Below are positions 4,469 to 24,610 of a stretch of 64,000 nucleotides of DNA, in pieces (the first letter of the stretch is position 1; every line of letters starts with the position of its first letter). A model generated the notes under the pieces. That model ran no database searches and had not been told where the DNA came from. It worked only from the letters and a program-made list of their open reading frames with translations. Location of the stretch: assembly GCA_030649835.1 (NCBI GenBank), contig JAUSES010000060.1, positions 6,411 to 70,410 on the forward strand, written 5' to 3'. This stretch comes from a bacterium (GTDB lineage: Bacteria; Patescibacteriota; Minisyncoccia; Phycocordibacterales; UBA1550). The translations under genes and the position numbers were made by a program.

Positions 4469-5902
4469 CTATATCACCTCCACCATGATCATATTTGTTC
4501 CTCCAATGTGCCCAAAGGGTACTCCCGCTGCAACCACCACCTTGTCGCCTTTTTTTGCAAGCTTGTGCTTGAGGACATACGTTCGCACTACCTTCATAAC
4601 ATCAAGTACATTCGAAAAATGATCAATGCGCACGGGGAAACATCCGAAAACAAGCTCTAGTTGTCGGACAATATACCCCTTTGGGCTCATAGCGATAACC
4701 GTCTGCGCAGGGCGGTATCGCGACACCATGCGTGCTGTGAGACCTGACTCAGAGAGTGCGATTATTACCTTTGCACCCACTGCAGACGCCGTACTCACCA
4801 CCGAAAAGGTTACCGCGTCTACCACATCTTTACGATGTGCACTCTCGTTGCTTTCATGAACGGGGGTATTTCCGTAGAGCGCCTCGCGGTGTGGATAATT
4901 TTTTTCAGCTATGTTTGCGACATCAGACATCATTTTTACGGTCTCAACGGGGTACTCACCGAGGGCACTTTCCTCAGAAAGCATCACAGCGTCAGCGCCG
5001 TCTAAAATGGAGTTTGCCACGTCAGACACTTCTGCGCGGGTCGGTACTGGAGATTTTATCATTGACTCCATCATTTGGGTCGCTACGATCACTGGTTTTC
5101 CCGCAATGTTACATTTCTCAATGATCATTTTCTGTAAAATCGGTACTTCTTGTGCGGGCACTTCCACCGCCAAATCCCCACGAGCAACCATCACTCCATC
5201 TGCCTCTCTAATAATTGCGTCAATGTTCTGAATGGCTTCGTCTGTTTCAATCTTTGCAATAATTTTTACTGTTGATCTTGCTTTTGTGAGAATTGCGCGA
5301 AGCTCACGAATATCAGAAGCGCGACGAACAAAAGAAAGTGCAATGTAGTCAACTCGATGCTCAACACCAAATACAATATCTTCTTTATCTTTTGGTGTGA
5401 GGCAACTAATCTTTAGCGAGACGCCGGGAAGGTTGACCCCCCTACGCCCTTTAGTTTCGCCACCTACTATCACCCGACATTTTATTTCACTACCCATGAC
5501 ACTGAGAACCTCCAAACGTTTTTTACCATCATCAAGAAGGATAGAGTCCCCCTCTTTTATCTCTTTTGTAAGCGCGGGATAATTCACAAATGCCCTTGTC
5601 TCATCTCCAACACATGCTTTTGTGGTGAGCGTAAAGGTGCTTCCCTTTTTAAGAATCACACTGTCCTTATAAAAACCCCCAATGCGAATTTTGGGGCCAG
5701 ACAGGTCCTGCAATATCGCAGTAGGTGTCCCGAGCTTCTCAGCAACTTTGCGAATGTTCCTTACTTTTTCAAAATGCTCCTCGTGTGTGCCATGGGAAAA
5801 GTTTAGTCTGCAGACATTCATCCCAGCCTTCACTAGCTTGGTAAGCATTATCTCACTGTCAGATGCTGGCCCTATGGTTGCGACGATTTTTGTCTTTTTC
5901 AT
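4469..5902 (-). CDS. pyk: Pyruvate kinase.
   Basis: 'KIVATIGPAS...NVCRLNFSHG' and 'MVARGDLAVEVP' are canonical pyruvate kinase motifs. The protein is 477 aa. Confidence 0.95.
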   Translation of the reverse strand: MKKTKIVATIGPASDSEIMLTKLVKAGMNVCRLNFSHGTHEEHFEKVRNIRKVAEKLGTPTAILQDLSGPKIRIGGFYKDSVILKKGSTFTLTTKACVGDETRAFVNYPALTKEIKEGDSILLDDGKKRLEVLSVMGSEIKCRVIVGGETKGRRGVNLPGVSLKISCLTPKDKEDIVFGVEHRVDYIALSFVRRASDIRELRAILTKARSTVKIIAKIETDEAIQNIDAIIREADGVMVARGDLAVEVPAQEVPILQKMIIEKCNIAGKPVIVATQMMESMIKSPVPTRAEVSDVANSILDGADAVMLSEESALGEYPVETVKMMSDVANIAEKNYPHREALYGNTPVHESNESAHRKDVVDAVTFSVVSTASAVGAKVIIALSESGLTARMVSRYRPAQTVIAMSPKGYIVRQLELVFGCFPVRIDHFSNVLDVMKVVRTYVLKHKLAKKGDKVVVAAGVPFGHIGGTNMIMVEVI

Positions 5903-6122
5903 CCCGTTAGAGGTAGGAAATTGATCCCGTTAGAAGTGGCGTCACGCTGCGTTACCTCGCGACTTCTAATGGGACAAGTTTCCGTAGTTAATTATTATCT
6001 AATAAGCATACAAACTTTATATTTTATTTACCCGCTAGATTCTCCTCAAAACTGAGTCCCACCCGCCATCACTTGAGCACAACTTTTTGCTGTGTTCTGG
6101 CGAAAGTGGGCGGGGACCTCTA
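5903..6122. repeat. MITE-like element, copy A, with 14-bp perfect terminal inverted repeats 'atcccgttagaggt'/'acctctaacgggat'. It abuts the pyk start codon.
   Basis: About 85 nt at 6040..6127 is an exact reverse complement of 21438..21520. The outer ends also match ('ttcatcccgttagaggtaggaaa' versus its RC at 21596..21622). Confidence 0.6.
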
Positions 6123-6311
6123 ACGGGATTCATTGTCGTGTTTGAATTTGAATTGTAAGAACGTATTATATCAAAATTTTGCATTTTCCCCAAGTTTTGC
6201 TATTATGCATTTTGTATTCTGCGTAGCCGAATCAGCTGATTCACATCTTGGATGAAAGCTTGGCCAAAATCGTGGCAATTCCAATCTGCTATTAGTAGAA
6301 TCAAAACATAT

Positions 6312-6386
6312 TCCGCGGTAGCTCAGTGGTAGAGCAAGCGACTGTTAATCGCTTGGTCGTAGGTTCGATCCCTACCCGCGGAGCCA
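6312..6386 (+). tRNA. tRNA-Asn (anticodon GTT).
   Basis: Manual cloverleaf: acceptor tccgcgg/ccgcgga; D-arm gctc-agtggta-gagc; anticodon stem agcga/tcgct with loop cuGUUaa; T-arm gtagg-ttcgatc-cctac; discriminator G; encoded CCA. Confidence 0.9.
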
Positions 6387-8129
6387 GTTAGGACGAGAGA
6401 GCTCGAAAGGGCTCTTTTGTCGTTTAAGGGCAACGCTATTTCTAGGTTCGAGCGCATCAATAAGTGCTTTTTGCTCTCTCATCTCATTTTCTATCAGTAA
6501 ATATGGATGAAGCTTATCAATAGTGAGTATTTTGTCCTTCAAAATTAGGTTCGAGCCAATCGTAGAAAATATCTCTCTTTTCTTTCGAAGATCCGGTTTA
6601 TTAAATTGATCTCTTGCGAAAGTGCAGAAATTAAACACGCGCTCGGCAATTTCAAGATCACCGTCGAGCTTCTCTTTGGTTCCTCCCATTTGTTTTTCTA
6701 TTGCTGTCCTTTGAGCAATAATCTCTTTTTTCTGCTCTTTGAATTCCTCAGGCGTGTATATTTCGTATTTTGAATTCAGTGGTGAGGAAAATTCTCTACT
6801 TATATTCACGAGCCGTGTCTGACAATCATCGTAAGAGGACTGCAAGGACATGCGAACCGCTTTTTCTTCCCCGCCAGAGTTCTTTTGTTTGTCTTGCAAA
6901 TATTCAAGCGCAAGCTCAAGATATTCTCGATCAATCGTAATATCCCCAAGAATCTTGTCGAACTGTGATTCAAGGTCTTCGAGCTTAATGTATTTTTGAG
7001 AACAGTTTTTATTCTTTTTCTTTGTGCAATGATAATACACATAGTTCAAAACCTTCGGGCTCTCCATGTCTGAAATATCAATCGCACATTTAGGGCACGC
7101 GGTACGATTCACATTAGAAAATTTATACTTGCATGCTGAGCAAATTATCTGATTCTTTTCTTCGGCGGTAATAGTAGAATCACACTCACCGCAACGCATA
7201 AGCCCCGTGAAAGCAAACTCTCGCGTTTGTGGTTGAGGCTTTCCATTTTTCCCAAGAAGAACTTGCGCTCTTTTATATTCTTTTTCTGTAATCATCGCCG
7301 GGTGATTCCCTTTAACCATCTTTACTTCACCCGTATCCGGGTCCGTCCATGGATAATAGCCATAGTAGAAAGTATCCTTAAAAATATTATACATATGGCT
7401 CATTGTCGGCGGATTACCTCCAATTTTTCTATGTTTTAAGGTTGTTAGACCCCATTCGGTAATTGCTATCTCGCGTATTTTTGAAACAGAATAAGTGCCC
7501 GTGAGGAATAGGTCCCACATTTTACGAACGAGCTCAAAACGCTCCGGATCTAGTGCAATAGTTTTATTTCCTTTTTCTGTACCTACATTCAAGTAACCTA
7601 TCGGGCCACCTGAGGGTCTCCATCCACGCATAGCTTTGCTATTTAATCCACGCTTCACATTCTTAGACAAGCGCATCACATAGTCAGTAGCACGCCCTCC
7701 TTCGATACTCATGAGCAATCCAGCATCTTCAGGATAGTAAGAGCGCCCGGGGGTCTTTATGACCTTAATGACTCCCTTCTGAAGCATCCACTGCAACCGT
7801 CCGTTGTCTATGGGGTTTCGAGAAAGACGGTCAATATCCCAACATAAAAGAGCGTTCGCTTCTCCTTTTTCAATTCTGTTTAACACATCATTGAAAATCG
7901 GTCGCCCTGGATCCTTCGCACTTTTTTCTTCAGTGAACGGGTCTCTCGCCAAGCTCAACTGCTCACGCTCTGCAACCTGCTTAAGCGCATTAGTTTGATC
8001 GCCAATAGAAGCAACTTGACGCTGAGAATCCTCAGAGCTCTTGCGACAGTATGCGAAGTACTTTAGCTTTTCATTTTTGTGCATAAAATAATCTACTTGT
8101 ACTATCCATTGTATCATCTTCGTAGCCAT
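6372..8129 (-). CDS. Large serine recombinase (resolvase domain, recombinase domain and zinc ribbon; phage-type integrase). The likely true start is an internal Met near 8084.
   Basis: 'YFAYCRKSSEDSQRQ' is the catalytic Ser motif of serine recombinases. A Cys cluster 'CGECD...CSAC..C' matches a zinc-ribbon insertion domain. The 3' end overlaps tRNA-Asn by 15 nt. Confidence 0.85.
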   Translation of the reverse strand: MATKMIQWIVQVDYFMHKNEKLKYFAYCRKSSEDSQRQVASIGDQTNALKQVAEREQLSLARDPFTEEKSAKDPGRPIFNDVLNRIEKGEANALLCWDIDRLSRNPIDNGRLQWMLQKGVIKVIKTPGRSYYPEDAGLLMSIEGGRATDYVMRLSKNVKRGLNSKAMRGWRPSGGPIGYLNVGTEKGNKTIALDPERFELVRKMWDLFLTGTYSVSKIREIAITEWGLTTLKHRKIGGNPPTMSHMYNIFKDTFYYGYYPWTDPDTGEVKMVKGNHPAMITEKEYKRAQVLLGKNGKPQPQTREFAFTGLMRCGECDSTITAEEKNQIICSACKYKFSNVNRTACPKCAIDISDMESPKVLNYVYYHCTKKKNKNCSQKYIKLEDLESQFDKILGDITIDREYLELALEYLQDKQKNSGGEEKAVRMSLQSSYDDCQTRLVNISREFSSPLNSKYEIYTPEEFKEQKKEIIAQRTAIEKQMGGTKEKLDGDLEIAERVFNFCTFARDQFNKPDLRKKREIFSTIGSNLILKDKILTIDKLHPYLLIENEMREQKALIDALEPRNSVALKRQKSPFELSRPNWLRG

Positions 8130-8364
8130 AAAGCATTGGTCTCAAATTTTGAGTTTCGCACTTTCTTACCAATCTTTTTACACTCATTAATTCCCTGAAT
8201 CTTTCTTTTCCAAATTCACCATGTTGCGCTTTTAACAACTGTTTAACAGATTTTTCACCTTCTTCACCCAAATATAATATTCTACATATTGCACATTCTA
8301 TTATTCCACTTTCATTAACTTTAGGATCATGAGTATGTTTGTCCCCTTCGCAATTTTTGACCAT
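8071..8364 (-). CDS. Hypothetical protein on the island.
   Basis: 97-aa ORF immediately upstream of the recombinase. I recognise no domain. Confidence 0.3.
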   Translation of the reverse strand: MVKNCEGDKHTHDPKVNESGIIECAICRILYLGEEGEKSVKQLLKAQHGEFGKERFRELMSVKRLVRKCETQNLRPMLYGYEDDTMDSTSRLFYAQK

Positions 8365-8542
8365 ATAAAGGTCAATGTCTTCGATTGAATTAATTGCCTT
8401 GATTATATTATTTTCATATGATTCGTACCTATTTTCTTGGTAATTTTCTTAATTAGTAATATACACTTGCCGAGTTACCGCCTTATAGCCAAGAAGACAC
8501 AAAGCTTACTCAGCAAAACGGCAACACATTTATTAACTGCTA

Positions 8543-8935
8543 CTAAAATGGTTCATCTTCATTTATCACTAAGGATTCCTGTGGCTCTTTGGGCATAAAG
8601 CAGAAGTTTTCTTTCCCATGTTTCGCTGTATCAATTTTCCCTTCATTAACTAGTTCCCTGAGAGCGACTTGAACATTCTTTGACCCAGCTACTTTCTTTA
8701 GTATTTCAGTCATTTCTCTCTTGGTTTTTCCGCCATCAGGAAGAATCTCAAGTATTCTCTCTTTTGCTTCCTCTTTTTTGTTTTCTTGGTCCTCAATTGC
8801 TCCACCATAACTAAGAATCGTTTGAACCCCATCGGACCCTTCCTGGTCTTTTATAATCGCCTTGAAGGGGTCTATTTCCTTCGTAAGGCGATTCTTTCGC
8901 TGGTATATGTCTATCTTCTTCTCCTCCTGGCTCAC
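8543..8935 (-). CDS. Hypothetical protein with a probable winged-helix. It may be the C-terminal part of the RepA-like protein after a frameshift.
   Basis: 'TKREMTEILKKVAGSKNVQVALRELVNEGKI' looks like a wHTH. It overlaps the upstream AAA_25 ORF by 125 nt in another frame. Confidence 0.4.
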   Translation of the reverse strand: MSQEEKKIDIYQRKNRLTKEIDPFKAIIKDQEGSDGVQTILSYGGAIEDQENKKEEAKERILEILPDGGKTKREMTEILKKVAGSKNVQVALRELVNEGKIDTAKHGKENFCFMPKEPQESLVINEDEPF

Positions 8936-9647
8936 TCTTCAGCATAAGCAATATTTCCACTGAGGCGGTTTTATCAGTTGAGCCAAACAAAAATTCCTTC
9001 TTTGGAACCTTGCCCTCGAAATTGCTTGGCTTGCGGAAGTGGTCCAAGAATACAACAGCGACACCTTTATCTTTGAGGACTTTGAGGCGGTTGAAGAAAG
9101 TTCTAATTTCATCTGCTTTTTCCTCCTTAATTCCACCCGACACTGCCCTAAAAGTATCTAGAAAAACAACTTTTATTTCGTAATACTCAATAACATTTAG
9201 AAGCCACTGCACCCCTTCGTTCGTATTGAGATTTAATTCTGTATCACTGTAAACTAAAATCTTTTTATTGCTCTCGTCAAAGCCTAGCTGTCTTCCTCTG
9301 CGCTGTGCCTCACTCTGAGACATTTCCATGTCAACATACAGAACATTGGACGCTTCGGTTTTGAACTCCTCGCGTCCAAGAAAATCAATTCCAAGGGCAA
9401 TACATCTAGCCATATCCATCGCAAGCCAGGTTTTCTTTTCTCCTGTAACAGAGGCTAGGATGACAAAACCTTCGCAAGGGATTAGGCCCTGAACCAACCA
9501 CCTTCTCTCTGGGAATTTTTTATTTCCTAGAGTTGTCCAGCTCATCGGCTCAAAGAACGGCTTCTCAATCTCTCTATCAATCTCCCTCATTTCTGAGCTT
9601 TCATTCCTTTCCTCCGCAAACTCCTTAAATGTTTTCTCTTCGTTCAT
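8811..9647 (-). CDS. RecA-like ATPase of the AAA_25 / RepA-like family, a probable mobile-element replication or mobilisation protein.
   Basis: 'GFVILASVTGEKKTWLAMDMARCIALG' is a P-loop of the RepA/AAA_25 type. 'VVFLDTFR' and 'VVFLDHFRK' are Walker B-like strands. Confidence 0.7.
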   Translation of the reverse strand: MNEEKTFKEFAEERNESSEMREIDREIEKPFFEPMSWTTLGNKKFPERRWLVQGLIPCEGFVILASVTGEKKTWLAMDMARCIALGIDFLGREEFKTEASNVLYVDMEMSQSEAQRRGRQLGFDESNKKILVYSDTELNLNTNEGVQWLLNVIEYYEIKVVFLDTFRAVSGGIKEEKADEIRTFFNRLKVLKDKGVAVVFLDHFRKPSNFEGKVPKKEFLFGSTDKTASVEILLMLKSEPGGEEDRHIPAKESPYEGNRPLQGDYKRPGRVRWGSNDS

Positions 9648-9870
9648 AACTTTTAGGCAATGTTATTTTATTAATATCAAGACTGCTTGTCACCGCCCCA
9701 ATAAGGCAAACAAGATTTTCGAAATACTCAAAAGCTTGTGCATCAGAGATGACCGTTTTGTTCTTAGCTTCGTAAAGCTCCTTGAATTTTTTGAGATAAG
9801 TATTTTTATCAACCATAAAATAAAACCCACTATTGAGGACCTGACTTCGCCTAGAAAGTCGGGACCTCAA
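9625..9870 (-). CDS. Hypothetical small protein.
   Basis: 81-aa ORF that heads the minus-strand island operon. Confidence 0.3.
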   Translation of the reverse strand: MRSRLSRRSQVLNSGFYFMVDKNTYLKKFKELYEAKNKTVISDAQAFEYFENLVCLIGAVTSSLDINKITLPKSYERRENI

Positions 9871-9892
9871 TAGTGGGTTCCTCTAGGCGAGC
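9835..9892 (-). terminator. Imperfect 22-bp hairpin followed by a U-tract (minus sense), a probable terminator after ORF 9981..10733.
   Basis: aacccactattgaggacctgac...gtcgggacctcaatagtgggtt is an inverted repeat. It is followed on the minus strand by 'tttattttat'. Confidence 0.5.
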
Positions 9893-9980
9893 GGATATAA
9901 AATATCCTGTGTCTAGCATAAAGAAACCCGTGTTTTTTCAACACGGGTCATGGATGGGTTTATTGTGGGTTACAGATGGG

Positions 9981-10733
9981 TTATTCTACAATTATCCTGA
10001 AACCAACTTTTTCAATATTGTGAAATATATCGGTGTTAACAGCACAGCCTTCAGGTAATATCTGCAAGTCTTCTTTAATTGTTTTAATTATTTGTCCTAT
10101 ATCAGAATATTCTGTTTTATTCAGCGGGAAGCCGAGCGCGTTGCAAAGGTCTTTATAGCTAGCTTGCTTTTCATTGGCATTCAATAATGTTTTCAACACA
10201 TTAAATTTTTGTTGATCTGCTTTAAAATTTACTTTTACTTTTCCAAGAGTTGTATCTCCAGTAATTGTATTGAAGGTAAGTTTATTTTTTCTACCAAGTG
10301 TAATTATACTTGGGTTGACGATTGTGGTTTTAGGTAGTTTCTTATTGAATACGTCGTCACCAGCCTCTTTCAAGAGGTTTAGGTGCTTGCTTGTTTCTGT
10401 GCGAATATTTTTTAGCAGGGTCTGAGATTCCTCACTTTGAATATTGCTGTATTCAATTCCTCCCTTTAAATTAGGAACGCTGTCTGCTTCGTAAAACTTA
10501 TAAAATTCGATATTATCCCTTTTTGCCATAGTGAGGAAATCTTTTATATCTGACTTCCAAATTTGATATCTAGAAAAAACTTCATCAAGTATATTTTTCT
10601 CTGCATATATAGCATCTCCTTCTTGGGCTTGGCGAGTAATATTTATACCCTCCAATATCAAGTCAGAAAATACTCTTTTGAGTTTACTAGGCGCCATGAT
10701 TGTAAATCCTACTCTTTTTTGACATAATGGCAA
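9981..10733 (-). CDS. Hypothetical protein on the island.
   Basis: Clean 250-aa ORF. I recognise no domain. Confidence 0.5.
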   Translation of the reverse strand: MPLCQKRVGFTIMAPSKLKRVFSDLILEGINITRQAQEGDAIYAEKNILDEVFSRYQIWKSDIKDFLTMAKRDNIEFYKFYEADSVPNLKGGIEYSNIQSEESQTLLKNIRTETSKHLNLLKEAGDDVFNKKLPKTTIVNPSIITLGRKNKLTFNTITGDTTLGKVKVNFKADQQKFNVLKTLLNANEKQASYKDLCNALGFPLNKTEYSDIGQIIKTIKEDLQILPEGCAVNTDIFHNIEKVGFRIIVE

Positions 10734-10939
10734 TACAACTGAATAGCAGTCGGCCTAACCCTTAGGAGTTTAAATGCTTAAGGTATGGTTGCGCAAATCC
10801 CATGGAAGGTACTGAACCCCGCGTTCAGCGACTCTTCCATGGGTCATATCGGGAAACTGGTATGTGGACGCAAGTCCTAGCTGGCGCGGGGTTCTGTGTT
10901 TATACCCCACGCTAGCTATATTATTGGCTAGCTATTTTT

Positions 10940-11206
10940 ATGAAAATTAACTCATCTTTATTAATATCAGGAATAACATTAATTATAGGTTTAACATTTA
11001 GTAAAACCGATCTTTTTTTACCTATTTCAGTATTAATTGCAAGTATCATTGGCCTCATTACTAGACAATGGGTTACATCAGACAGACTTGGAAGGGCTAC
11101 TAGGTTGAGCATCTTACTTAAATTCTTTTTATCTCTTATTGGTTTTTATGCAATGATAGGTCAACTCGTATGTATTTGGCTATTAGTAAGGTGGTTTATT
11201 CTATAA
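10940..11206 (+). CDS. Small membrane protein (3 TM helices).
   Basis: Hydrophobic 88-aa ORF. It is the first in a plus-strand run of small ORFs. Confidence 0.4.
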   Translation: MKINSSLLISGITLIIGLTFSKTDLFLPISVLIASIIGLITRQWVTSDRLGRATRLSILLKFFLSLIGFYAMIGQLVCIWLLVRWFIL

Positions 11207-11514
11207 AACATGAAAATATGTCCCAAATAATTACATATAGACACGACAGAGAATATGGATACTGTCATATAAAACTCGACTCTGGAGAAAGAATTCTGTT
11301 ATCAGAGGCGAGTGACTATATAAAAATCTTCAAATTACTTTTTGGTATCATTCCAATAAAAACAATTTGGAAATGGCATAGAACAAACGATCCAAAAGAA
11401 ACCGTACTTAAAATTATGGACAATCATCAAGATACTAGTTTCTTTGATTCATTTGTAAAAGAAATACAAAAATATCGCTCAACCGATGAGATTAAAAATA
11501 AATTCGGTAAATAA
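11170..11514 (+). CDS. Hypothetical protein. The probable start is the Met at 11218.
   Basis: Soluble ORF of 98-114 aa. I recognise no domain. Confidence 0.4.
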   Translation: MYLAISKVVYSIKHENMSQIITYRHDREYGYCHIKLDSGERILLSEASDYIKIFKLLFGIIPIKTIWKWHRTNDPKETVLKIMDNHQDTSFFDSFVKEIQKYRSTDEIKNKFGK

Positions 11515-11523
11515 AATAAATTT

Positions 11524-11835
11524 ATGGACAAAAATTATCAGAAATATTTATCGATAACAGCGGGAATAATGCTCCTCTTGGCTATCCCAGCAATCTGGCC
11601 TTATGGATATTTTCAGATTCTAAGGTGGATTGTTGCTGGAGTGGCCGTGTATAACGCATATTTCGCATACGAACTAAAGAAAAATGAATGGGTGCTTATT
11701 ATGATTGCCGTAGCAATACTATTTAACCCGATAGCTCCAATTTTTCTCCAAAAAGAAACTTGGGTAATTCTAGACCTGGTTGCCTCTGTTTTAATGTTTG
11801 TCTCAATTATAAAATTAAAAACTAAAAAATCATGA
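11524..11835 (+). CDS. Small membrane protein (3 TM helices).
   Basis: Hydrophobic 103-aa ORF. Its end overlaps the next ORF by 4 nt (ATGA). Confidence 0.5.
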   Translation: MDKNYQKYLSITAGIMLLLAIPAIWPYGYFQILRWIVAGVAVYNAYFAYELKKNEWVLIMIAVAILFNPIAPIFLQKETWVILDLVASVLMFVSIIKLKTKKS

Positions 11836-12365
11836 TAGAAAAAATTAAAAACATAGGGTGGACTGGGGCTGGCTTGCTCTTTATTCTATTGGTATTTATT
11901 CTAATAGGCTTTTTGGTGGTGGGAGGAGTTGGTTTTATTGAGAATCATCAAAACCTGATAGAATCAGTAAATAATGTAACTGCGGGTATTTTCGTATTAT
12001 TACTTCTTTTTTCTGTAATACCAAAATTACGAATTTTCACTGGAACTGGGATTGTATTTTTAACATACATCTGGATATTTTTGCTATGGTTAACTTGCTT
12101 AGTTATAACTTACGAATTCTGGGGCCTTATAGGAATCTTTATCGGTGTAATAATGTTTGGTGTGGGTTTATTTATTACCGCCCCTCTTGCTTTACTTTTT
12201 TCAGGCCAAGGGTTTGGCGCACTTCTGTTGCTTCTCTCTATTGGGCTTACTTACCTAATAAGAAATTTGGGGATCTGGATTGTCAGCAAGTATCCAGAGG
12301 CAGGTGTCTCTACTGAGATAAACACAAGCGACATAAATGAAGTAAATGATAAATTTGATAAATAA
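11832..12365 (+). CDS. Membrane protein (4-5 TM helices).
   Basis: 177 aa, very hydrophobic, with an acidic C-terminal tail. Confidence 0.5.
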   Translation: MIEKIKNIGWTGAGLLFILLVFILIGFLVVGGVGFIENHQNLIESVNNVTAGIFVLLLLFSVIPKLRIFTGTGIVFLTYIWIFLLWLTCLVITYEFWGLIGIFIGVIMFGVGLFITAPLALLFSGQGFGALLLLLSIGLTYLIRNLGIWIVSKYPEAGVSTEINTSDINEVNDKFDK

Positions 12366-12389
12366 ATTTTTTATAAAAACATTATTAAT

Positions 12390-12761
12390 ATGAGAATTTG
12401 TATCAAATGCAAAAAAAGAGAAGGTTCTTGGTGGGACCATTTGTGTCAGTATTGTCGCAAGATACCAGTATCTAAACCAGAAGCTCTTGCCTATGAAAAA
12501 TTAAATGAATCTAAAGATATTTTGAGTCAAGATAGGATTGAATATACCGTCAATCTAGAAAAAGCAACTAGTAGTTATTCCTCGAAGTTTGTTAATTTAA
12601 GTAAGGAACTTATTGAGAAGCTAGTAGGATTTTTGTTTCTTGTATTGTTTATGTTTTTAATTTATTTTGTAGCTAGTTGGTTTAAATTTGATACAAATAA
12701 TAATGCTGAAAATTACGAGCCATGCAAAACTTCTGGACACCAACTTTGGCAAGATTGCTGA
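12390..12761 (+). CDS. Zinc-ribbon protein with a C-terminal TM helix.
   Basis: The N-terminus 'CIKCKKREGSWWDHLCQYC' is a CxxC...CxxC motif. A hydrophobic segment follows at 'FLFLVLFMFLIYFVASWF'. Confidence 0.5.
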   Translation: MRICIKCKKREGSWWDHLCQYCRKIPVSKPEALAYEKLNESKDILSQDRIEYTVNLEKATSSYSSKFVNLSKELIEKLVGFLFLVLFMFLIYFVASWFKFDTNNNAENYEPCKTSGHQLWQDC

Positions 12762-12787
12762 TGTAAAAATGAGATATAATTACAAAT

Positions 12788-13069
12788 ATGAATGAAAAAG
12801 AAATATTAAAACTTAATGACGAAGTGCTAAAGATGAACAGTCTTGACTTCGCTAACTTTTTAGAAAAGAAAACGAAAACATACCAAGATGTTGAGCAGAC
12901 AGTATCTCAGGGTGGGGATGTTGCGTTTAAAACTATTCTTGCATTAAAGTATAAGGTATTTATTTTGGAAAACTCCAAGAAGAAACTGATTGTATATTCC
13001 TTCTTACTAACTATAATCATAGTACCTTTAATTATCCAAAGTCTTTCTTTTGTACTTCCAGAAATGTAA
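12788..13069 (+). CDS. Small protein with a C-terminal TM helix.
   Basis: 93-aa ORF. Confidence 0.4.
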   Translation: MNEKEILKLNDEVLKMNSLDFANFLEKKTKTYQDVEQTVSQGGDVAFKTILALKYKVFILENSKKKLIVYSFLLTIIIVPLIIQSLSFVLPEM

Positions 13070-13079
13070 AAATAAATGA

Positions 13080-13277
13080 TTGAGGTATCTTAAAGAAAAT
13101 CAAAATACTATGAAAAAATTAATAGGTCTTATCTCAACAAAAGGCAAGACCTCTGAGCAAGCAAGCAAGGAGGTTACGGACGCTTTCCACAAGTTCAACA
13201 AGATACAAAAGCAGGTTGAAATTGAAATGCGAGAGGAGGAGCTGTCACTCACACCCCAGCACGAGTGTCAGAAATGA
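13080..13277 (+). CDS. Small charged/coiled-coil protein.
   Basis: 65-aa ORF. Confidence 0.3.
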   Translation: MRYLKENQNTMKKLIGLISTKGKTSEQASKEVTDAFHKFNKIQKQVEIEMREEELSLTPQHECQK

Positions 13278-13301
13278 AAATAACAGCGGTAATATAAAAA
13301 T

Positions 13302-14063
13302 ATGCTTGGCGCAATTATTGGTGATTTTGTGGGGTCATACTATGAGTTTAACGCGGTCAAAACAAAAGACTTCGACCTTTTCCCCGTGGGCTCGAAATTT
13401 ACCGACGATACTATTCTTACCCTCGCTACAGCACACGCTATTCTAAATAAAGAAGATTACGGTAAATCTTACAAAAACTTTTTTTGGCAATACCCACTTA
13501 AAAACTACGGCGAGCGATTTTACGCATGGGGCAAAAGAGACGACTCTGAGCCATACAATAGTTTTGGTAACGGGTCTGCGATGAGGGTAGCTCCTGTCGG
13601 GTGGGCTTTCAATATCATTGAGCAGGTTCTTGAGGAGGCAAAGAAGAGCGCTGAAGTGACCCATAATCACCCAGAGGGGATAAAAGGCGCTCAAGCCGTA
13701 GCAAGCGCAATATTCCTCGCAAGAACTGGGGCAAGCAAAAAAACAATCAAGGAATACATAGAATTAAATTTTGAGTACGACCTAGATCGTTCCGTGGATG
13801 AGATACGGGAAACGGCCGTCTTTAACGAGACGTGTATGATAAGCGTTCCCGAGGCGATTATTTGTTTCCTTGATTCTGAATCATTTGAAGATGCCCTACG
13901 AAATGCAGTTTCTCTTGGGGCAGATGCTGACACCCAGGCATGCATCGCCGGAGCAATAGCAGAAGCATTTTACAAAGAGATACCGGATTTTATACGAGAG
14001 GAGGTATTGAAGCGCTTACCTAAGAAATTCCATGGGATGATTGATGAAATACTCACTGCATAA
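13302..14063 (+). CDS. ADP-ribosylglycohydrolase family protein (DraG/ARH-like).
   Basis: N-terminal 'GAIIGDFVGSYYEF', mid 'GNGSAMRVAPVG' and C-terminal 'GADADTQACIAGAIAEAF' match the binuclear-Mg ARH signature. Confidence 0.85.
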   Translation: MLGAIIGDFVGSYYEFNAVKTKDFDLFPVGSKFTDDTILTLATAHAILNKEDYGKSYKNFFWQYPLKNYGERFYAWGKRDDSEPYNSFGNGSAMRVAPVGWAFNIIEQVLEEAKKSAEVTHNHPEGIKGAQAVASAIFLARTGASKKTIKEYIELNFEYDLDRSVDEIRETAVFNETCMISVPEAIICFLDSESFEDALRNAVSLGADADTQACIAGAIAEAFYKEIPDFIREEVLKRLPKKFHGMIDEILTA

Positions 14064-14167
14064 GAAACGCTTCCAAATATCTCCCGTTTCCATGTGCTGA
14101 TTCTGCGCGATCAACCAGAATTCTGTAATTTTTTATTTCCATTTTTTAAATATAAATATGATGTACC

Positions 14168-16561
14168 CTACAGGCGAACTTGCTCTTGTACGTCTAGTTG
14201 AATCAGTTCTTGGAATTCATTCAATGTAATTACTTCCTCTCTAAAATTATCTGAATCAGATAAATCTCTTACCGTTAAAATAAAGGCGTAGGGTTGATTT
14301 TCTAAGTTTTCTTTTCCAAGAATTTTACTTTCATAAGATTGTGTTGCAGACAACTGTAAAAGTACCTCTAGCACAGTAGATGGTACTTTTTTCTTTATTT
14401 TTTTAAAATGAATCACATTGTGATTTGGGTTCCTGTAATGGTCCCATGTTGGAGTCTGGTTTAGAGACAGTGCTTTATTTTTTTCTTCAACCTCACCATT
14501 TTCATCAAGGATTGGGACCAAGAACCGAACTGCTGGTTCAACACTCATCATCTTATATTCTTTTGGGTAATTTTTATCAACGGGAGGGTTATAAGCAAGA
14601 GTGAATATAAACTCTACCTTTTTACCCAAGATACTTTCTGGGAGCTGTATTTGTAATTTGTGTTTCCTCTCAACGTAATTAATCTTATCTGCATACATTA
14701 ATGTTAGTTCATTTTCATTATCCTTTAAAGCAAGCTTGTGGTCGGGGACTCCAAAACCATATGCTCGTTTTATATGGTCATCCTCGATTTTTACTTGTGG
14801 AGCTTTTGCGGTTGAATGAATCAAAAGTGCCTTAACGAGATTAAGTTTATTGTTCTCTAAATCAACATAATCTGATGCTTTCGCTTTCTTTATAAAATCT
14901 AACAAAAACGCACATTATCTAGTGATTAAAGGCGCACTTAGGCTAGTGCCAATGTCTTTGTTGAGGCCATCCTTATTTATGCTCTCAACGCCAAAAACCT
15001 GATTTGAGGATATCATGTGAGCATTTCCATAACCAAAGCTTGGGTCTTTTTTTACATTACCTCCATTAGCAACCAATTCTGGTTTCTTAATATCTTTAGC
15101 GACACTGGAAGTACGCGTAAAAGGGGCTGGGAACCCTTGCTCAACATTTACACAACTAGCGTCAGCCTTACCCGAAATTGAGCCAACTGAAATTACATTA
15201 AGAGCATCACTTGGTGATGCAATAAGAGATTTTTCTTGTTTAAAAATAGTATTGTAATTTTCACTAGCGTAAACTTGATGGTTACCGACAGAACAAACAA
15301 ATATCACATCGTACTCCCTAGCTATATTATCCAAGAATTCGGTCAATTCACTCACGTCGTCTTTGTCTATCGGTTCATTTTCATTAATAGAGAGATTATA
15401 TATTGAAATATCTTCATACCTATTTACAACCTCAGAAATTGCACCCTTTAGTTCATCAAGGGAGACGCATTTTGAATCACTACCATCCAAATACAATACT
15501 TGTATGTCTAGAATATTACATGTTGGAGCAATAGAACCACCCCCTGTTAATTGCATAAAGAAGTTGTCACCAAACAAAATTCGGCTGGCCACAATAGTAC
15601 CGTGGTTCTTGTCCTCGACCTGATGTCGAGACAAATAATTATGGTGATGAGCCCTAAGCTGTTGGAGTATTGGATTATATATACCACTATCAATGAGACC
15701 CACTCTTTCTGCTGTTAGTGGAGCAAGGAGATTCAGTGCCCCAAGATTAATCTCTGGGATACACCTCTGTGAACTCAAAATTGGTTGCTCTCTTATTTTG
15801 CCGATAAAATTAAAATCTGCATCACTTAAAATACCAATAATTTCATTTGCTGTAAGGGTCGCCAAGAATGATATGTTACTAAAAAATAAGTTTATATTTC
15901 TCTTTTTCAATTTTCCACGAAAAACAAGTTGATCGTTCAAAGAATCAAAGAGTGTGTCGTATTTATCTTTGCCAATATTTGGGTAAATCTCAATAATGCA
16001 ATCAATTGTTTGATTTAAAATATTGCCATGAATAAGTGAGTAGATATAATTACTTACCCGGCCCTCAATGATTGTATTACGGTCTGTGACTGCCGACATG
16101 GCATACAATTCACGCAACAGATTCTTGTCTTTTTTTCTTGGTAAATCCTCCCCTGTGAGGGCAGCATCAAATGAGCCGCTATTGCTTATACTAACCAAAC
16201 GGTCAAAATCCTCTATTTTCCCACTAACGATAAATGTTTTGTCGTTTTTAGAACCAACAATTTCAAGCCCCGTCTCATTCCACACATCAGCAGGACTGTT
16301 AGATTTTGAGTTTGCCAGCTCATCTAATTCGACTTCGACATACAGTAATTTCCCGGCAGTTTTTGCTTCCGATTTTATTTTTTTAACAGTTGTATCAATC
16401 TGCCTTACGCGCTTTGAAAACACTCTGGCGTAATGTTCGCGGGTATCATCAGTAATTTTCTTTTCCCAAAACGACTTCCAAAAATCAGAACCTCCTCCAG
16501 GCTTTTTACCTTTATTTATCTTCTTTTTGGGTACAACAATTGAAAAGTTCATATATTTCAT
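14168..16561 (-). pseudogene. ietS: Subtilase (peptidase S8), IetS-like. It is split into ORFs 14915..16561 and 14168..14905 by a single in-frame TAA at 14915..14917.
   Basis: The Asp motif 'VGLIDSGI', the His motif 'NHGTIVASR' and the Ser motif 'GTSLSAPLITR*' are present. The downstream ORF is in the same frame and continues with a subtilase-like C-terminus ('LVKALLIHS', 'AYGFGVPD'). Confidence 0.6.
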
Positions 16562-17661
16562 TTTATATTGTCACGAAGCGTAGTGTACGCAATACCAGAA
16601 ACTTCAGATATGTCAATTAAATTGAAACTGCTATCTTTTAACACTTGCGCAATTTCATAAAGATTCTTTTTGTTAAGCCTCTGTTTTGATGTTAATTGGT
16701 GATTAAAAGAAATAATATGTTTTAAGCAAAAAATATTATCTAAGCTTATACCCTCTATTACCGATGCTCTTTTTATGTTTTGGCATATATCATTAATTAA
16801 AGAACCATTTAAACCAACAGTGACTCTTGCCATTAAATTATAGTCTAATGATTTATTTTTATTAAAATCACTTAAAAACAACTCAAACAATAGAGCCCTC
16901 GATTCCTCTTCTGGGGTATTAATTTCTAACCTTAGCCCGAATCGTCTCCATAGTGCCTTGTCCAACAACTCATCATGATTTGTTGCTCCAATTAGAATTG
17001 AAGTCACTGGGAATAAGTCAATATTTTGAAGTAACACAGTAACTACTCTCTTTAATTCCCCCAACTCCCTTGCATCATCTCGATGTTTAGCTACTGTATC
17101 AATTTCGTCAAAAAAGATGACTACTCGCTCCCTTTTTGCAATTTCAAAAACCTCGCTAATGTTTTTCCCTGTTTTACCTAAATACGATGAGACTAGTTCA
17201 TCTAATTTGACAATAATAAGTGGGAGGTTCAATTTATTCGCAAGAGCATAAGCTAATCTTGTTTTCCCTGTACCAGGTGGTCCATAGAAAAGAATTTTGT
17301 TTATAGGGGAAATATTATTTTTAAGTAACTTATCAAAAGCTTCCCAATGCTTTATAAACTCAATTATGGTTGTCCTTGTATTTGGATTAAGGACAACAGA
17401 ATCTAATTCGATGTTTGAGTAAATTTTTTCAAAAAGAGTATCGTTATTGTTTAGATTTATATTCCTAGAAGTTAACGACTGCCCAGATAAGGAATGCCCC
17501 CTAGACACATCTTTAATCAGATTTGACAATCTTTTGGCAACTAATATTTTTCCGTTAGCTCTTTGTTTTTTTATCTCCTTTTCTAGGACAGAAACAACCT
17601 CCTCGTTTTTACCTGAGGAAAAAGCCTTTACGATATCTTCTACGATATTTATAGTTGCCAT
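16558..17661 (-). CDS. ietA: AAA+ ATPase, IetA-like partner of the subtilase.
   Basis: Walker A 'GPPGTGKT', Walker B 'VIFFDEIDTV' and the classic AAA sensor region are present. Its stop overlaps the start of the S8 gene (ATGA). Confidence 0.8.
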   Translation of the reverse strand: MATINIVEDIVKAFSSGKNEEVVSVLEKEIKKQRANGKILVAKRLSNLIKDVSRGHSLSGQSLTSRNINLNNNDTLFEKIYSNIELDSVVLNPNTRTTIIEFIKHWEAFDKLLKNNISPINKILFYGPPGTGKTRLAYALANKLNLPLIIVKLDELVSSYLGKTGKNISEVFEIAKRERVVIFFDEIDTVAKHRDDARELGELKRVVTVLLQNIDLFPVTSILIGATNHDELLDKALWRRFGLRLEINTPEEESRALLFELFLSDFNKNKSLDYNLMARVTVGLNGSLINDICQNIKRASVIEGISLDNIFCLKHIISFNHQLTSKQRLNKKNLYEIAQVLKDSSFNLIDISEVSGIAYTTLRDNIK

Positions 17662-18041
17662 AAAATCCGTAATTTAAAAAAACCAACTAAATTAATACTC
17701 TTATTGTATCATATTACGAAAATTAATGTAAACCATATTTTCGTAATTATATTTGTACCCCCCTGATGAGCACTCCAAAGAATAGCTAAAAAATATAAAT
17801 GAGTTTTTGAGAATTAATTTTCCCCAAGAGCCTGGGGGTATGGGTATCCCCCCAGGCTCAAAATGGCTCTATGTTCACACAAACTACCCAACGCCGTATT
17901 TTCCATCACACGGGGGCCTACGTCGAGGGGTATGCACACCGCCCCTGCCCTATTGCACTGAGAGATTGGGAACATAAAAATCATCAGATCGAGTGGCTAT
18001 CCAAGTTCTAATAGCCTCGACTGTTCGGAGCAAATTAAAAC

Positions 18042-18066
18042 CCCTCGAAAGAGGGTGTTTTTATTT
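18042..18066 (+). terminator. Short GC hairpin plus T-tract (cccctc-gaaa-gagggtg-ttttt).
   Basis: Stem-loop followed by 'tgtttttatttg' inside the long noncoding tract. Confidence 0.4.
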
Positions 18067-18089
18067 GCTCCGCGGAGTAAAGCGAAGCT

Positions 18090-18460
18090 TTACGGTAGGG
18101 ATCGAACAGCGGAGCGATATTTTGTTAGCAAACAAAATCGCGAGCTGGTGCCCAGACAGAACTTTTTGACGAAAAAGTTTTAGTCGAGGGAGATATCCCT
18201 ATCCGCCCGGTAAGATCGAAGACCTTGAGTATATTTATGATGATGTACTCATCTGAAGAAATACAAAGGTGTACCGTTCCTGTAAGGAAAGATACCCCTA
18301 CCCTTAGGGATCGAACCGAAGACCCACCATTTTGGGAATGAGAGTATTCTCGAAGACCTACAAAATGGATGGTCTCGATCGCATGGAAGGGCGATCATGC
18401 ATACAATCAGCACAGCGACCTGGTAAATCGTGACCACTCCCTACTAGCAGAGTCAGTAAG
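18090..18460. repeat. Array of at least three related structured elements (about 110-150 nt each). Each is framed by 'gtagggatcgaa' ... 'ccctac(ccgc)' and contains paired hairpins.
   Basis: Similar cores occur at 18097, 18209 and 18303. 3' motifs 'gata[ct]ccctaccc' occur at about 18200, 18290 and 18447. Internal stems include 'aactttttg/caaaaagtt' and 'gacccaccattttg/caaaatggatggtc'. Confidence 0.45.
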
Positions 18461-18531: not shown

Positions 18532-19704
18532 ATGAGAAACATTATTTTAGGAATTACGGCCATTGTCATATTTATCGTAGGTTCTCTTGCGATTAGCCAT
18601 CCTTTTTTAAAAGATTCTGAAAATTATCTAGCTGTTATAGAAAAAAATGTTCAAGAGCAAATCACCAATGACGAGAGTCAAGGCGTGTATGAAAACAAAA
18701 CCGTAAAAAAGTGTGAGAACCCTGTGTTCACTTCGTATTTTATTGATCCGCAATATGTACAAAAAGTTGGACAAGTTGGTGTCGTCCATGGTTCCGGCTT
18801 ATACATAGTAGAAAGGTCATATATAAGTGTAAAGGAAAAATTTGCCGCGCAGAAAGTACCAGTATACGCTCCTTCTGACATTGAGCTCGTTGCAGGTAGT
18901 CATTATCGTGATCCTGCTGCTCCAAGTAATGCCCTACCCGATTATGCCCTGTGGTTTGACGCGGGATGTGATGTAGAAGTAAATCTAGCACACCTCAAAG
19001 AAGTTGCTCAACCGATTGCTTTACAATTACCAGATGTAAAAACAGACAGCAGGAATACACGACTAAAGCCTTTGCAATTTAAAGCTGGGGATCTCATAGG
19101 ATATTTTATTTATAGTCATGGGGATGTTGCAGGATTTGATTTTATCGTCAGAGACAAAAAGGTGTTAAATAAATTTATCAATCAAGAAAGATATTCCGAC
19201 CATAGAGCATCAAATCTTATCAATGGCGTTTGTCCTTATGATTATTATGAACCTAACAAGAAAAAAACATATTATAATTTGCTAGGCGGAGCCGGAGGAA
19301 CACTCTTCAAAACTAAAGACTGCGGAAAATCATCAAGAGATGTTGCTGGCACCATTTCGGGGATGTGGTTTTTGAGTCAAGAACCGCAGAATAACATCTA
19401 CGAAAGCTACAAGGAAGGACTGTATGGCAGTACTTTGTCTATAGTAGGAGACGAGGAAAGGATCACTATAGGTAACTTGGGAGAAAGTCGTATGTCTTGG
19501 ATATATAACAACAACCCCACCTACAAACTACCCGAACAGGTAAAGAGCGAGCACTGCTATAAGTTTGATGGGTTCACTCCAGGAGATAATAGGGGCTGGG
19601 TTTACTTTAAGTTCGTTTCAGATACACAGCTTGATGTCTTTTTTTCTCAAACAGGAACTTGCCCATACTCACTTCCGCCAAACGCCAAACGATATTATAA
19701 ATAG
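18532..19704 (+). CDS. Secreted or membrane-anchored hypothetical protein.
   Basis: It has an N-terminal TM/signal 'ILGITAIVIFIVGSLAI'. The ORF is 390 aa with no recognised domain. Confidence 0.6.
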   Translation: MRNIILGITAIVIFIVGSLAISHPFLKDSENYLAVIEKNVQEQITNDESQGVYENKTVKKCENPVFTSYFIDPQYVQKVGQVGVVHGSGLYIVERSYISVKEKFAAQKVPVYAPSDIELVAGSHYRDPAAPSNALPDYALWFDAGCDVEVNLAHLKEVAQPIALQLPDVKTDSRNTRLKPLQFKAGDLIGYFIYSHGDVAGFDFIVRDKKVLNKFINQERYSDHRASNLINGVCPYDYYEPNKKKTYYNLLGGAGGTLFKTKDCGKSSRDVAGTISGMWFLSQEPQNNIYESYKEGLYGSTLSIVGDEERITIGNLGESRMSWIYNNNPTYKLPEQVKSEHCYKFDGFTPGDNRGWVYFKFVSDTQLDVFFSQTGTCPYSLPPNAKRYYK

Positions 19705-19746
19705 ACCCTTTTAATGTAGTAAACAATGAGTGGAGCATAAAAGTAA

Positions 19747-19776
19747 GACCGTCCCCCTCGTGGACGGTTTTTACTT
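19747..19776 (+). terminator. Intrinsic terminator (gaccgtcc...ggacggt + TTTTT).
   Basis: Hairpin plus T-tract about 45 nt after the stop of ORF 18532..19704. Confidence 0.6.
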
Positions 19777-19786
19777 TTGTCATGCT

Positions 19787-19912
19787 TCCGCGCGTGTAGG
19801 GATCGAAGGGATTTTCGGTTTACGCTCGTAGCAACGAGTGCCGAAAATCCCCGTTTTCAATTTCAGTGAGTGGCGACGAACTGAAATTGAAAAAGATACC
19901 CCTACCCGCAAA
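19787..19912. repeat. Fourth copy of the structured element family: an outer 'gtaggg/ccctac' stem enclosing two hairpins. It is a possible small RNA or tRNA-derived repeat.
   Basis: tgtagggatcgaa | gggattttcgg..ccgaaaatccc | ttcaatttcag..ctgaaattgaa | gatacccctacccgc. It is homologous in layout to 18097..18205. Confidence 0.4.
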
Positions 19913-19938
19913 ACCTACAATATTTTCCAAAGAAAAAA

Positions 19939-19962
19939 GGTTGCCACGAGTGGCAACCTTTT
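19939..19962. terminator. Bidirectional hairpin terminator (ggttgccac-gag-tggcaacc), A/T-flanked.
   Basis: Perfect 9-bp stem, with 'aaaaaa' on the 5' side and 'tttt' on the 3' side. It is 20 nt beyond the stop of the minus-strand ORF 19983..20846. Confidence 0.6.
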
Positions 19963-19982
19963 AAATTAATTCAAATACCTAT

Positions 19983-20846
19983 TTACTTAATTGCCTCCAA
20001 ACAAAATGTTCCTTGTGGAGTACAGCGTTTTGGACCATCGAAGAATTTGAAGGCTACGTCAGGCACAGGATATTTGGTCTCTGTTTCATGAACGATATTG
20101 CCATCAAACATCCTGCCACACACCTCATGCGCTTTTTCGAGCGATCCTTGAATATCTTTGCAGGCATCATATTCAACTTTAAGCGCCGCTAATTTATCGC
20201 TAAAGTCTTTTATCCGCGCCACGAGCCTATTATATTTTTCGAAGTATTTGAGCCCCGCTTGATGTATTGCGTTTGCTTCACGATCGCTTTTTTCACCAAT
20301 CTGATTGAGGGTGTCAATGTTTTTAATCAACCGATCTCGGTTTGTATCGATTTCTCCCTTCCACGAATTTACCTTTTCGACAAGCGGATCTAAACGAGCT
20401 TTCTCGATCTGGCACCAATTGTATCTATTCTGATCAACAGTGCCATGGCAAACTCCATTATAAGAATCCGCTTGACCGTTTACGTTTTTTGCAAAGTCAT
20501 TTTGACTTATAATATTATCCTCATGCTTTGTATTCTCCTGCTCAAATGTAGCCCACGCATTGAAAAGAAGGTCTGCTGTCGCAAGCTGGTGTGCTTGTTT
20601 TCCTTCTAAAACTACGCCTTCTTTGTTTGCGATTTTTAAATCCCGAACAGTGCTACGAATAGAGCCAATATATAAGCTGGCTTTTGCATCCCGCGCGTGG
20701 CCTGTGTTTTCATCTGCTGGCACACCACTTGCCCCGCCCTCTGCGTGCGCAAATGCCGTCAGTGCCATCATTAAAACCAAAGTGATATACGTTTTCATTT
20801 TGAACTCCTTATGTTGAATATCTATTAAACCTACAGGCGAAATCAT
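19983..20846 (-). CDS. Secreted hypothetical protein (signal peptide). The probable start is the Met at 20798.
   Basis: 'MKTYITLVLMMALTAFAHA' is a Sec signal. The rest is Cys-containing and coiled-coil-like. Confidence 0.6.
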   Translation of the reverse strand: MISPVGLIDIQHKEFKMKTYITLVLMMALTAFAHAEGGASGVPADENTGHARDAKASLYIGSIRSTVRDLKIANKEGVVLEGKQAHQLATADLLFNAWATFEQENTKHEDNIISQNDFAKNVNGQADSYNGVCHGTVDQNRYNWCQIEKARLDPLVEKVNSWKGEIDTNRDRLIKNIDTLNQIGEKSDREANAIHQAGLKYFEKYNRLVARIKDFSDKLAALKVEYDACKDIQGSLEKAHEVCGRMFDGNIVHETETKYPVPDVAFKFFDGPKRCTPQGTFCLEAIK

Positions 20847-20889
20847 TTTACTCTGCAGGTATTCCTGACCTCAAAAAAATGATGCAAGT

Positions 20890-21617: not shown

Positions 21618-21620
21618 GGG

Positions 21621-24396: not shown

Positions 24397-24476
24397 GCAC
24401 AGAAGTTTTTAAAGAACTTTAATGCTTTAAATTACTTCGTCCGAGACACCACTCTGATTGCCTGCGTCTCTTATAA

Positions 24477-24532: not shown

Positions 24533-24610
24533 TATTAGCCGTCAAACCATACCATGATGGAGCGACACCTTTTGTTGCAGAAAAATTAGATTAATTTTTG
24601 CCTTTTAGAT

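Follow-up and report, generated by a model that had tools for sequence, protein, structure and literature searches.

A probable integrative plasmid-like element at the tRNA-Asn gene of a candidate phyla radiation bacterium, with attP inside its serine integrase gene

A large serine recombinase gene that runs into the 3' end of a tRNA-Asn gene raises the question of whether the DNA behind it is a mobile element, and of where such an element ends if no long direct repeat marks its far side. The question is asked here of a 64,000-nucleotide stretch of contig JAUSES010000060.1 (hereafter the window). Candidate phyla radiation (CPR) bacteria, or Patescibacteria, make up a large share of bacterial diversity, and their mobile elements are barely described. 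According to a groundwater study, plasmids are 'rarely studied' in this group (PMC12023590). An original prediction for the window proposed an integrative element, plasmid-like or satellite-like and loaded with defence cargo, at 6312-17760. Our analysis indicates that the segment at 6385-18031 is very probably an 11.65-kb integrative plasmid-like element of a CPR (Candidatus Yonathbacteria-like) bacterium, in which the attachment site of the free form (attP) lies inside the integrase gene (int) and the tail of the integrase is swapped on integration.

The integration target, tRNA-Asn(GTT), lies intact at 6312-6386 on the plus strand, folds into a cloverleaf and is the sole tRNA found in the 64 kb by ARAGORN and Rfam (72 bits). 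The recombinase open reading frame (ORF; 6372-8129, minus strand, 585 aa) overlaps it as predicted, with its stop 15 nt within the tRNA gene. In this integrated form the protein ends in …PNWLRG, and the last four codons (W-L-R-G) together with the TAG stop are encoded opposite the acceptor arm and CCA of the tRNA. The product of the adjacent pyruvate kinase gene (pyk) is at most 86% identical to those of Candidatus Yonathbacteria and other Paceibacteria metagenome-assembled genomes, and the window therefore comes from a CPR bacterium.

Related genomes lacking the insertion define both ends of the element. The adjacency of pyk and tRNA-Asn is kept in 12 related genomes, five of which (L004, L005, L016, L018 and L020) have neither a recombinase nor any island gene at this tRNA. 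Their empty sites consist of the tRNA (…CGCGGAGC), an A-rich stretch, a terminator hairpin and GCT(T)CCGCG…TAGGGATCGAA, and the same architecture is found in the window from 18032 on, where the host flank begins with the terminator hairpin followed by GCTCCGCGG…; the sequence directly before 18032 is …CTGTTCGGAGC. Because the empty-site architecture resumes at this position, the element occupies 6385-18031 (11,647 bp), and its left and right attachment sites (attL and attR) share only CGGAGC, at 6379-6384 and 18026-18031. The reconstructed junctions are …CCTCGACTGTTCGGAGCCAGTTAGGACGAG… for attP and …CCCTACCCGCGGAGCAAATTAAAACCCC… for the host site (attB). The att sites of a related island (L086) share GCTCC and narrow the crossover to GGAGC (6380-6384), the final 5 nt of the tRNA-Asn gene; the encoded CCA is supplied from the element side of attL. 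A dyad-symmetry search for a central dinucleotide at the crossover gave no clear position. The right end thus moves from 17760, as first proposed, to 18031, and the expectation that long direct repeats would be missing was borne out, with 5-6 bp of identity between attL and attR and no long direct repeat of tRNA-Asn within the window. A small shared core of this kind is what large serine recombinase att sites present.

The island also stands out in composition. Its GC content of 0.370 compares with 0.427 in the remainder of the window, with the predicted drop reaching a level of 0.33 across 9.98-13.3 kb, and the tetranucleotide outlier windows of the 64 kb fall exclusively within 8-18 kb. Other relatives carry different islands at the orthologous tRNA-Asn. 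A precise insertion that is missing from related genomes is the mark of an integrative plasmid or integrative mobilizable element. The opposite view, that these are conserved core genes beside tRNA-Asn and that nothing was inserted, has nothing but the adjacency itself to recommend it; five relatives without a single island gene at the orthologous tRNA, different islands in others and the deviant composition leave it practically no chance of being correct.

The far end of the element carries the piece that the integrase gene lacks. At 17950-18030 on the minus strand lies a detached 3' end of int, which encodes LRTVEAIRTWIATRSDDFYVPNLSVQ followed by a stop and comes into frame with int after circularisation. 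When the right and left ends of the element are joined, the integrase ORF grows from 585 to 608 aa and its terminus changes from …PNWLRG to …PNWLRTVEAIRTWIATRSDDFYVPNLSVQ; counted from the likely start at M16 (position 8084), which is indicated by homolog N-termini, the protein has 570 aa when integrated and 593 aa when joined. The crossover hence lies inside the integrase ORF, and integration alters the product. The restored tail (TVEAIRTWI…DFYVP), about 24 aa long, is conserved among family members. Among the 120 closest homologs, the motif φ-[ED]-x-[IV]-R-T-W-I-x-x-N-x-D-[FY]-x-[VI]-P follows WLR in about 14, and about 100 terminate in antisense readings of tRNA 3' ends (…WLRG, …WLPG, …WLRDQDSNLEPTP). 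The fit of the rebuilt tail to this motif validates the att assignment independently of synteny. The rebuilt tail further matches that of P0032, a homolog encoded on a free circle described below, and the two attP regions are colinear. With the islands L086 and L097, which hold an in-frame tail remnant at their far ends, three integrated islands are known to keep the detached piece.

The enzyme itself is a large serine recombinase, as originally called. The Resolvase (PF00239, E=2.6e-17, residues 25-169), Recombinase (PF07508) and Zn_ribbon_recom (PF13408) domains all score above Pfam cut-offs, the protein matches a PHROG integrase family, and in its motif YCRKSSEDSQ the columns equivalent to R13 and S15 are invariant across 40 homologs. 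An AlphaFold (AF2) model of P0032 has a mean predicted local distance difference test (pLDDT) score of 81 and the standard large serine recombinase layout, with two long helices (384-492) that form a coiled coil within the zinc ribbon; its best Foldseek matches are the SPbeta, phiC31, Bxb1 and LI integrase structures. The domains, the coiled-coil-bearing zinc ribbon, the fold and the minimal att identity of 5-6 bp are all shared with integrases of phages and integrative and conjugative elements (SPbeta SprA, phiC31, Bxb1, A118/LI). The family of the window differs from these in sequence, with identities that do not exceed 18% for solved structures and 27% for phage or plasmid records, in targeting the extreme 3' end of a tRNA, in having no recognisable gene for a recombination directionality factor (RDF) and in possessing an extra C-terminal two-helix region, the last part of which is exchanged on integration. 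Pfam and PHROG scans recognised no RDF homolog among the small ORFs of the element.

Whether the exchange of the tail has any consequence is the next question. The crossover lies downstream of every catalytic and DNA-binding domain, and integration removes no catalytic or large functional domain; the crossover-encoded WLR falls in the middle of the last predicted helix of P0032, and the exchanged residues comprise half of that helix and an extended segment. Such a layout would also be expected if the overlap of attP and int were neutral and the tail dispensable, and the very different peptides that tRNAs impose on integrated forms, like the pLDDT of only 55-70 in the tail, fit that idea. A neutral exchange is nonetheless somewhat unlikely, given the way in which the tail is preserved. 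Over tail codons 1-9, the proportion of non-synonymous differences (pN) is 0-0.05 against 0.56-1.05 for synonymous ones (pS) in the window, L083 and L086, so what is conserved in the tail is the protein sequence and not a DNA site. This purifying selection is joined by conservation down to about 55% integrase identity, by an intact tail at attR in all three integrated islands and by a sister clade in which the tail has never been detached. The members of that clade (P0083, P0103 and P0112) bear the tail in TraG/TrwB-type contexts without tRNA or the LOOT RNA considered below, which makes the tail ancestral and the placement of attP before it specific to the LOOT clade. A further homolog, P0101, sits in an archaeo-eukaryotic primase context.

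A precedent exists in the SPbeta-like phage Goe14, in which integration shortens the serine integrase by 131 aa and the C-terminal piece remains as an ORF of its own; an RDF homolog was not recognised, and the authors of that study proposed a regulatory or switch role for the truncation (bioRxiv 10.1101/2021.11.22.469490), a proposal that also speaks against a neutral exchange in the window. Shortening on integration, a detached C-terminal piece and the missing RDF homolog are common to both cases. Goe14, a phage of the 130-kb class, loses 131 aa at a spoVK target, whereas here about 24 aa are exchanged at a tRNA end, in plasmid-like CPR elements of about 10 kb whose family has thousands of members. 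The 'suicidal' tyrosine integrases of the archaeal SSV1 type likewise have attP within the integrase gene and a tRNA target, and their gene is rebuilt only by excision; they belong to another enzyme superfamily, however, and in them the split cuts off the catalytic domain, so that the enzyme loses its activity (PMC8371274), whereas all known functional domains remain in one ORF here.

The family extends well beyond this locus. A threshold of E≤1e-30 yields more than 3,392 matches to the integrase, and all the named ones among them bear CPR names. No relative was found among the plasmids of PLSDB (best identity at most 27%), among INPHARED phages (at most 26%) or in an integrase search of IMG/VR, and the literature searched does not describe the element family. 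P0032, a tail-bearing integrase 69% identical to that of the window, is encoded on two independently assembled contigs (L083 and L084). Their sequences agree at 100% identity once one is circularly permuted, and their terminal overlaps have the assembler's k-mer size. They represent a closed circle of 9,957 bp containing int, an AAA_25 gene, LOOT and cargo. A free circular form is thereby known for this relative, not for the window element. It would be tempting to equate the long integrase with the free circle in general, a rule we rejected since long forms are also encoded in tandem arrays (L085, L093) and in the TraG-type clade that lacks LOOT. The long forms of L085 and L093 are explained by tandem elements in which the neighbour supplies the tail.

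These arrays show some features of their own. A single tRNA-Asn carries elements in tandem or nested within each other in L085 (7123-15964) and in L093. A recombinase of 504 aa in L085, about 25% identical, likewise overlaps the tRNA by 15 nt, and the far end of its island appears to donate the tail (…TVDAFRTANWGK…) to a neighbouring 600-aa integrase; L093 contains two LOOT copies. In another relative, L088, a group I intron (11744-11995; Rfam, 71 bits) follows immediately after the integrase stop, where ARAGORN finds no tRNA although one is expected, and the integration target there may be an intron-containing tRNA gene.

Spread between species is documented by a sister island from Hainich groundwater (L017/L097; about 11.6 kb in L097). 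It sits at the orthologous tRNA of another species, with a pyk 74% identical and a different tRNA-Asn sequence, and its integrase is 95% identical to that of the window. Just three nucleotide blocks are shared between the two islands: int (89%), a 250-bp block around LOOT (10699-10947 in the window; 89%) and a 249-bp right end (84%; 17788-18031), whose similarity ends at the att core. In place of AAA_25 the sister island encodes a D5_N/DUF5906 primase-helicase of superfamily 3 (SF3), and its cargo is different. A nearly identical integrase in so distant a host, beside another replication gene and other cargo, argues for horizontal transfer and modularity. The L086 island, with an integrase 73% identical, is about 9.3 kb long and carries HpaII-type restriction-modification cargo.

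A prophage or helper-dependent phage satellite could have the same general appearance. Among the PHROGs, the best match of the integrase is an integrase family and the replication protein hits phage primase/helicase families; a size of about 10-12 kb is also satellite-like. This explanation is very improbable. Pfam and PHROG scans of the island ORFs yielded no capsid, terminase, portal, structural, packaging or helper-interference gene, IMG/VR gave no relatives, the closest phage integrases are at most 26% identical and the free 9,957-bp relative encodes only replication and integration genes plus cargo. The element also differs from phage satellites of the phage-inducible chromosomal island or P4-like type in that no capsid-remodelling gene was detected. 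Of the two descriptions in the original prediction, plasmid-like is hence supported by the circular relative and satellite-like is not. The closest architectural parallels to an integrative plasmid-like element are Islander-type islands and the actinomycete integrative plasmids pSAM2 and SLP1, small integrative replicons at tRNA 3' ends in which the integrase adjoins the tRNA and replication genes are combined with cargo. These use tyrosine integrases and leave a displaced tRNA fragment of tens of bp as a direct repeat (PMC4383910); here the enzyme is a serine recombinase and the repeat is limited to GGAGC, which sets the element apart from tyrosine islands. No Pfam or PHROG match to transfer functions (relaxase, origin of transfer, type IV secretion system) was found in the island.

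A feature that went unmentioned in the original prediction is a LOOT RNA (RF03000) at 10752-10878 on the plus strand. The Rfam match is full length (model positions 1-121) and scores 73.4 bits against a gathering score of 46.4. LOOT occurs in 10 of 10 distinct CPR elements (the window, L010, L013, L014, L017/L097, L083/L084, L085, L086, L088 and L093), including islands with recombinases merely 25-39% identical to that of the window, and in every case the recombinase ORF stops 13-15 nt inside a tRNA. It is absent at four loci of the TraG-type sister clade. The motif as catalogued in Rfam is here tied to one class of mobile element. Its position is constant, between the cargo and the int-proximal module, and in most cases it points away from the first gene of the module, though the two are co-oriented in the circle L083; in the window it lies 18 nt from the start of that gene (orf250). 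LOOT was singled out by Rivas et al. for extreme cross-covariation within helices (PMC7657543). The variable orientation, the 18-nt gap and the reported cross-covariation (PMC7657543) are the grounds for considering that LOOT may act at the DNA level or on both strands. Its conservation at the level of the backbone, beside exchangeable replication genes, suggests a role in replication or its control. In the literature searched, no function or genomic context has been described for the motif.

The replication module of the window copy is damaged. The gene at 8543-9647 (minus strand) encodes an AAA_25 ATPase, RepA/DnaB-like and of superfamily 4 (SF4), with a C-terminal winged helix-turn-helix (wHTH) part. 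The ATPase was predicted correctly (Pfam, E=8e-32), and PHROG matches and alignment to intact homologs agree; the wHTH-like ORFs listed separately are the other frame of this same gene, broken by a +1 frameshift within GGAGGAGAAGAAGA (~8925-8945). In L085, L086, L088 and L093 the gene is a single ORF of 368-389 aa. Programmed frameshifting was considered and rejected, as the purine-rich stretch has no slippery motif and the homologs are single ORFs; the frameshift is best treated as a mutation, and an intact replication helicase is found in relatives and not in the window copy. A sequence search of the PDB with an intact homolog returned no matches.

Defence cargo was also foreseen, and here too the gene content is as proposed while one gene is broken. 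PADLOC and Pfam identify an IetAS system of adjacent AAA+ ATPase and S8 protease genes with strong profile matches: IetA (16558-17661, minus strand; PADLOC 309 bits, Pfam AAA) is intact, whereas IetS, an S8 subtilase at 14168-16561 on the minus strand, differs from known IetAS systems in being split by a nonsense codon. This in-frame TAA (14915-14917) falls just past the GTSLSAP catalytic-serine motif, and IetS matches in two pieces. From 6356 to 18129, an independent Logan assembly of run SRR13727527 matches the window at 100% identity, which shows both the frameshift and the TAA to be reproducible. With the replication gene and IetS both mutated, autonomous replication and IetAS defence have probably been lost in this copy.

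The two lesions invite the alternative that the island is a dead relic, integrated once, decaying in place and able neither to excise nor to replicate. Junction evidence for a circle is likewise missing: no circular or empty-site form of the window element was seen, the Logan contig runs unbroken through attR, and a metagenome scan for an intact attP-form junction gave one match, which proved to be another attR-type remnant and not a circle. The ends of the Logan contig were discarded as junction markers; the left one lies in tRNA sequence identical across species and hence reflects a graph branch, and the right one, 158 bp beyond attR, is uninformative on excision. The broken genes of a copy that may be decaying and the unbroken contig count against the interpretation favoured here, as do three further points: long-form genes occur on large contigs too (tandem arrays, a separate clade) and do not prove a circle, the tail is modelled at moderate confidence, and the part given to LOOT is deduced solely from position and co-conservation. 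We consider decay to the point of immobility somewhat unlikely. The integrase ORF, the 81-nt tail remnant, LOOT (73 bits over its full length) and the right-end block are all intact, loss of a replication gene is no bar to excision or integration, and the composition is still strongly foreign.

On the interpretation of an integrative plasmid-like element, the large serine recombinase placed a circular, plasmid-like molecule at the final 5 nt (GGAGC) of tRNA-Asn and left the tRNA whole. With attP in the 3' end of int, the free circle encodes a protein about 23 aa longer with the conserved C-terminal tail; integration swaps this tail for a few residues read from the tRNA antisense strand and leaves the tail-coding piece at attR, and excision would restore the full-length gene. 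The backbone of the family consists of the integrase, the LOOT locus and the right end of about 250 bp, with the replication module (SF4 AAA_25 plus wHTH, or a D5-type SF3 primase-helicase) and the cargo as exchangeable parts. The window element may still excise. The two integrase isoforms probably differ in activity, and the reading we prefer is that the long form integrates while the short form is either excision-competent or inactive. A more ambitious proposal joins two ideas, that the tail is a built-in directionality switch and that LOOT is the replication origin or a copy-control RNA of CPR plasmids; as a pair they are speculative and rather unlikely to hold. In such a switch, the C-terminal helix of the long form would set the coiled-coil geometry for attP x attB integration, and the short form would carry out attL x attR excision without an RDF or, conversely, stay locked until the long form is supplied.

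The remaining genes of the element fall into the int-proximal module and the cargo. Between the helicase-like gene and int lies a 97-aa ORF (8071-8364, minus strand) with no detectable similarity to ORFs at the same position in relatives. A small conserved protein of the orf81 family (9625-9816, minus strand; 63 aa from M19) is encoded directly upstream of the replication gene, as in relatives. The first gene of the module, orf250 (9981-10733, minus strand; 250 aa), has no family match in Pfam, PADLOC or PHROG scans. On the cargo side, 10940-13069 (plus strand, GC 0.33) contains small, mostly hydrophobic ORFs for small membrane proteins, including a DUF6804 gene at 11524-11835, and is followed by an ADP-ribosylglycohydrolase gene at 13302-14063 (plus strand). 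The latter has a GC content of 0.44, unlike its neighbours, is convergent to IetS and could be an independent defence or anti-defence gene.

The surroundings of the tRNA are rich in other repeats, several of which were weighed as island ends and dismissed. A displaced tRNA fragment cannot serve as the right boundary, as there is no second tRNA 3' end there. T-arm-like fragments at 18096, 18305 and 19797 were rejected as attR since they are inverted and belong to palindromic units resembling miniature inverted-repeat transposable elements (MITEs), which also adjoin tRNA-Asn in relatives without the island. An 86-nt perfect inverted repeat (6048-6133 and 21439-21524) was rejected as well; it brackets tRNA-Asn plus 3.4 kb past attR, and each copy lies within a larger unit with its own terminal inverted repeats. 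These MITE-like units of about 230 nt occur as two inverted copies (5895-6133 and 21439-21628; 86 nt 100% identical), each with its own terminal inverted repeat CCCGTTAGAGGT. The outer repeat of each unit reaches over an annotated start codon, that of pyk in one case and that of an M14 peptidase gene in the other, and the two genes consequently share the same 5' leader. The palindromic MITE-like units are located at 18066-18107, 18290-18400 and 19732-19808 in the window, and downstream of tRNA-Asn in L004, L005, L016, L018 and L020. Their ends mimic the local tRNA-Asn 3' end, following each species' own variant, and they are 90-96% identical between genomes whose proteins are about 75-85% identical. 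Four relatives also repeat 11-14 nt of the tRNA 3' end in direct orientation 230-330 nt further downstream, for which reason even the 'empty' tRNA-Asn sites seem to hold miniature inserts.

Beyond attR, three ORFs (390, 287 and 117 aa; 18532-21243) without family match precede the M14 genes. They are missing from most relatives, which marks this stretch as a variable hotspot segment beyond the element. The tandem paralogous M14 zinc carboxypeptidase genes (21621-23408) are kept as a pair near tRNA-Asn in L004, L014, L016 and L018, and in relatives the pair (21.6-23.4 kb in the window) reappears 3-8 kb from the tRNA. Further along, a 34-nt near-perfect palindrome (24470-24538; 97% complementary, 1-nt spacer) was noted. 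A milder compositional anomaly at 48000-54200 (GC 0.38, then 0.51) coincides with genes for large secreted or surface proteins (an M23 peptidase/NHL protein and a 1138-aa fibronectin type III protein), not with a mobile element.

Integrative elements, large serine recombinases and attP sites within int are each already known; new are that they occur together in CPR bacteria and with the swap of a small conserved tail, that tRNA ends are targeted by serine instead of tyrosine integrases, and LOOT as a hallmark. Large serine integrases are prized editing tools, and their one-way behaviour normally needs a separate directionality factor. An enzyme whose C-terminus is edited by integration itself is a testable candidate for factor-free control in genome engineering. 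The locus further provides a mapping rule, in that a search for the detached tail-coding piece locates the far end of an island, which solves the problem of the missing direct repeat for serine-integrase islands of this family. LOOT gains a concrete and testable genomic context, and a role as origin or copy-control RNA, if true, would be the first function for an orphan Rfam motif. For CPR bacteria, the locus defines a family of elements that use tRNA 3' ends to move defence and restriction-modification cargo from one species to another.

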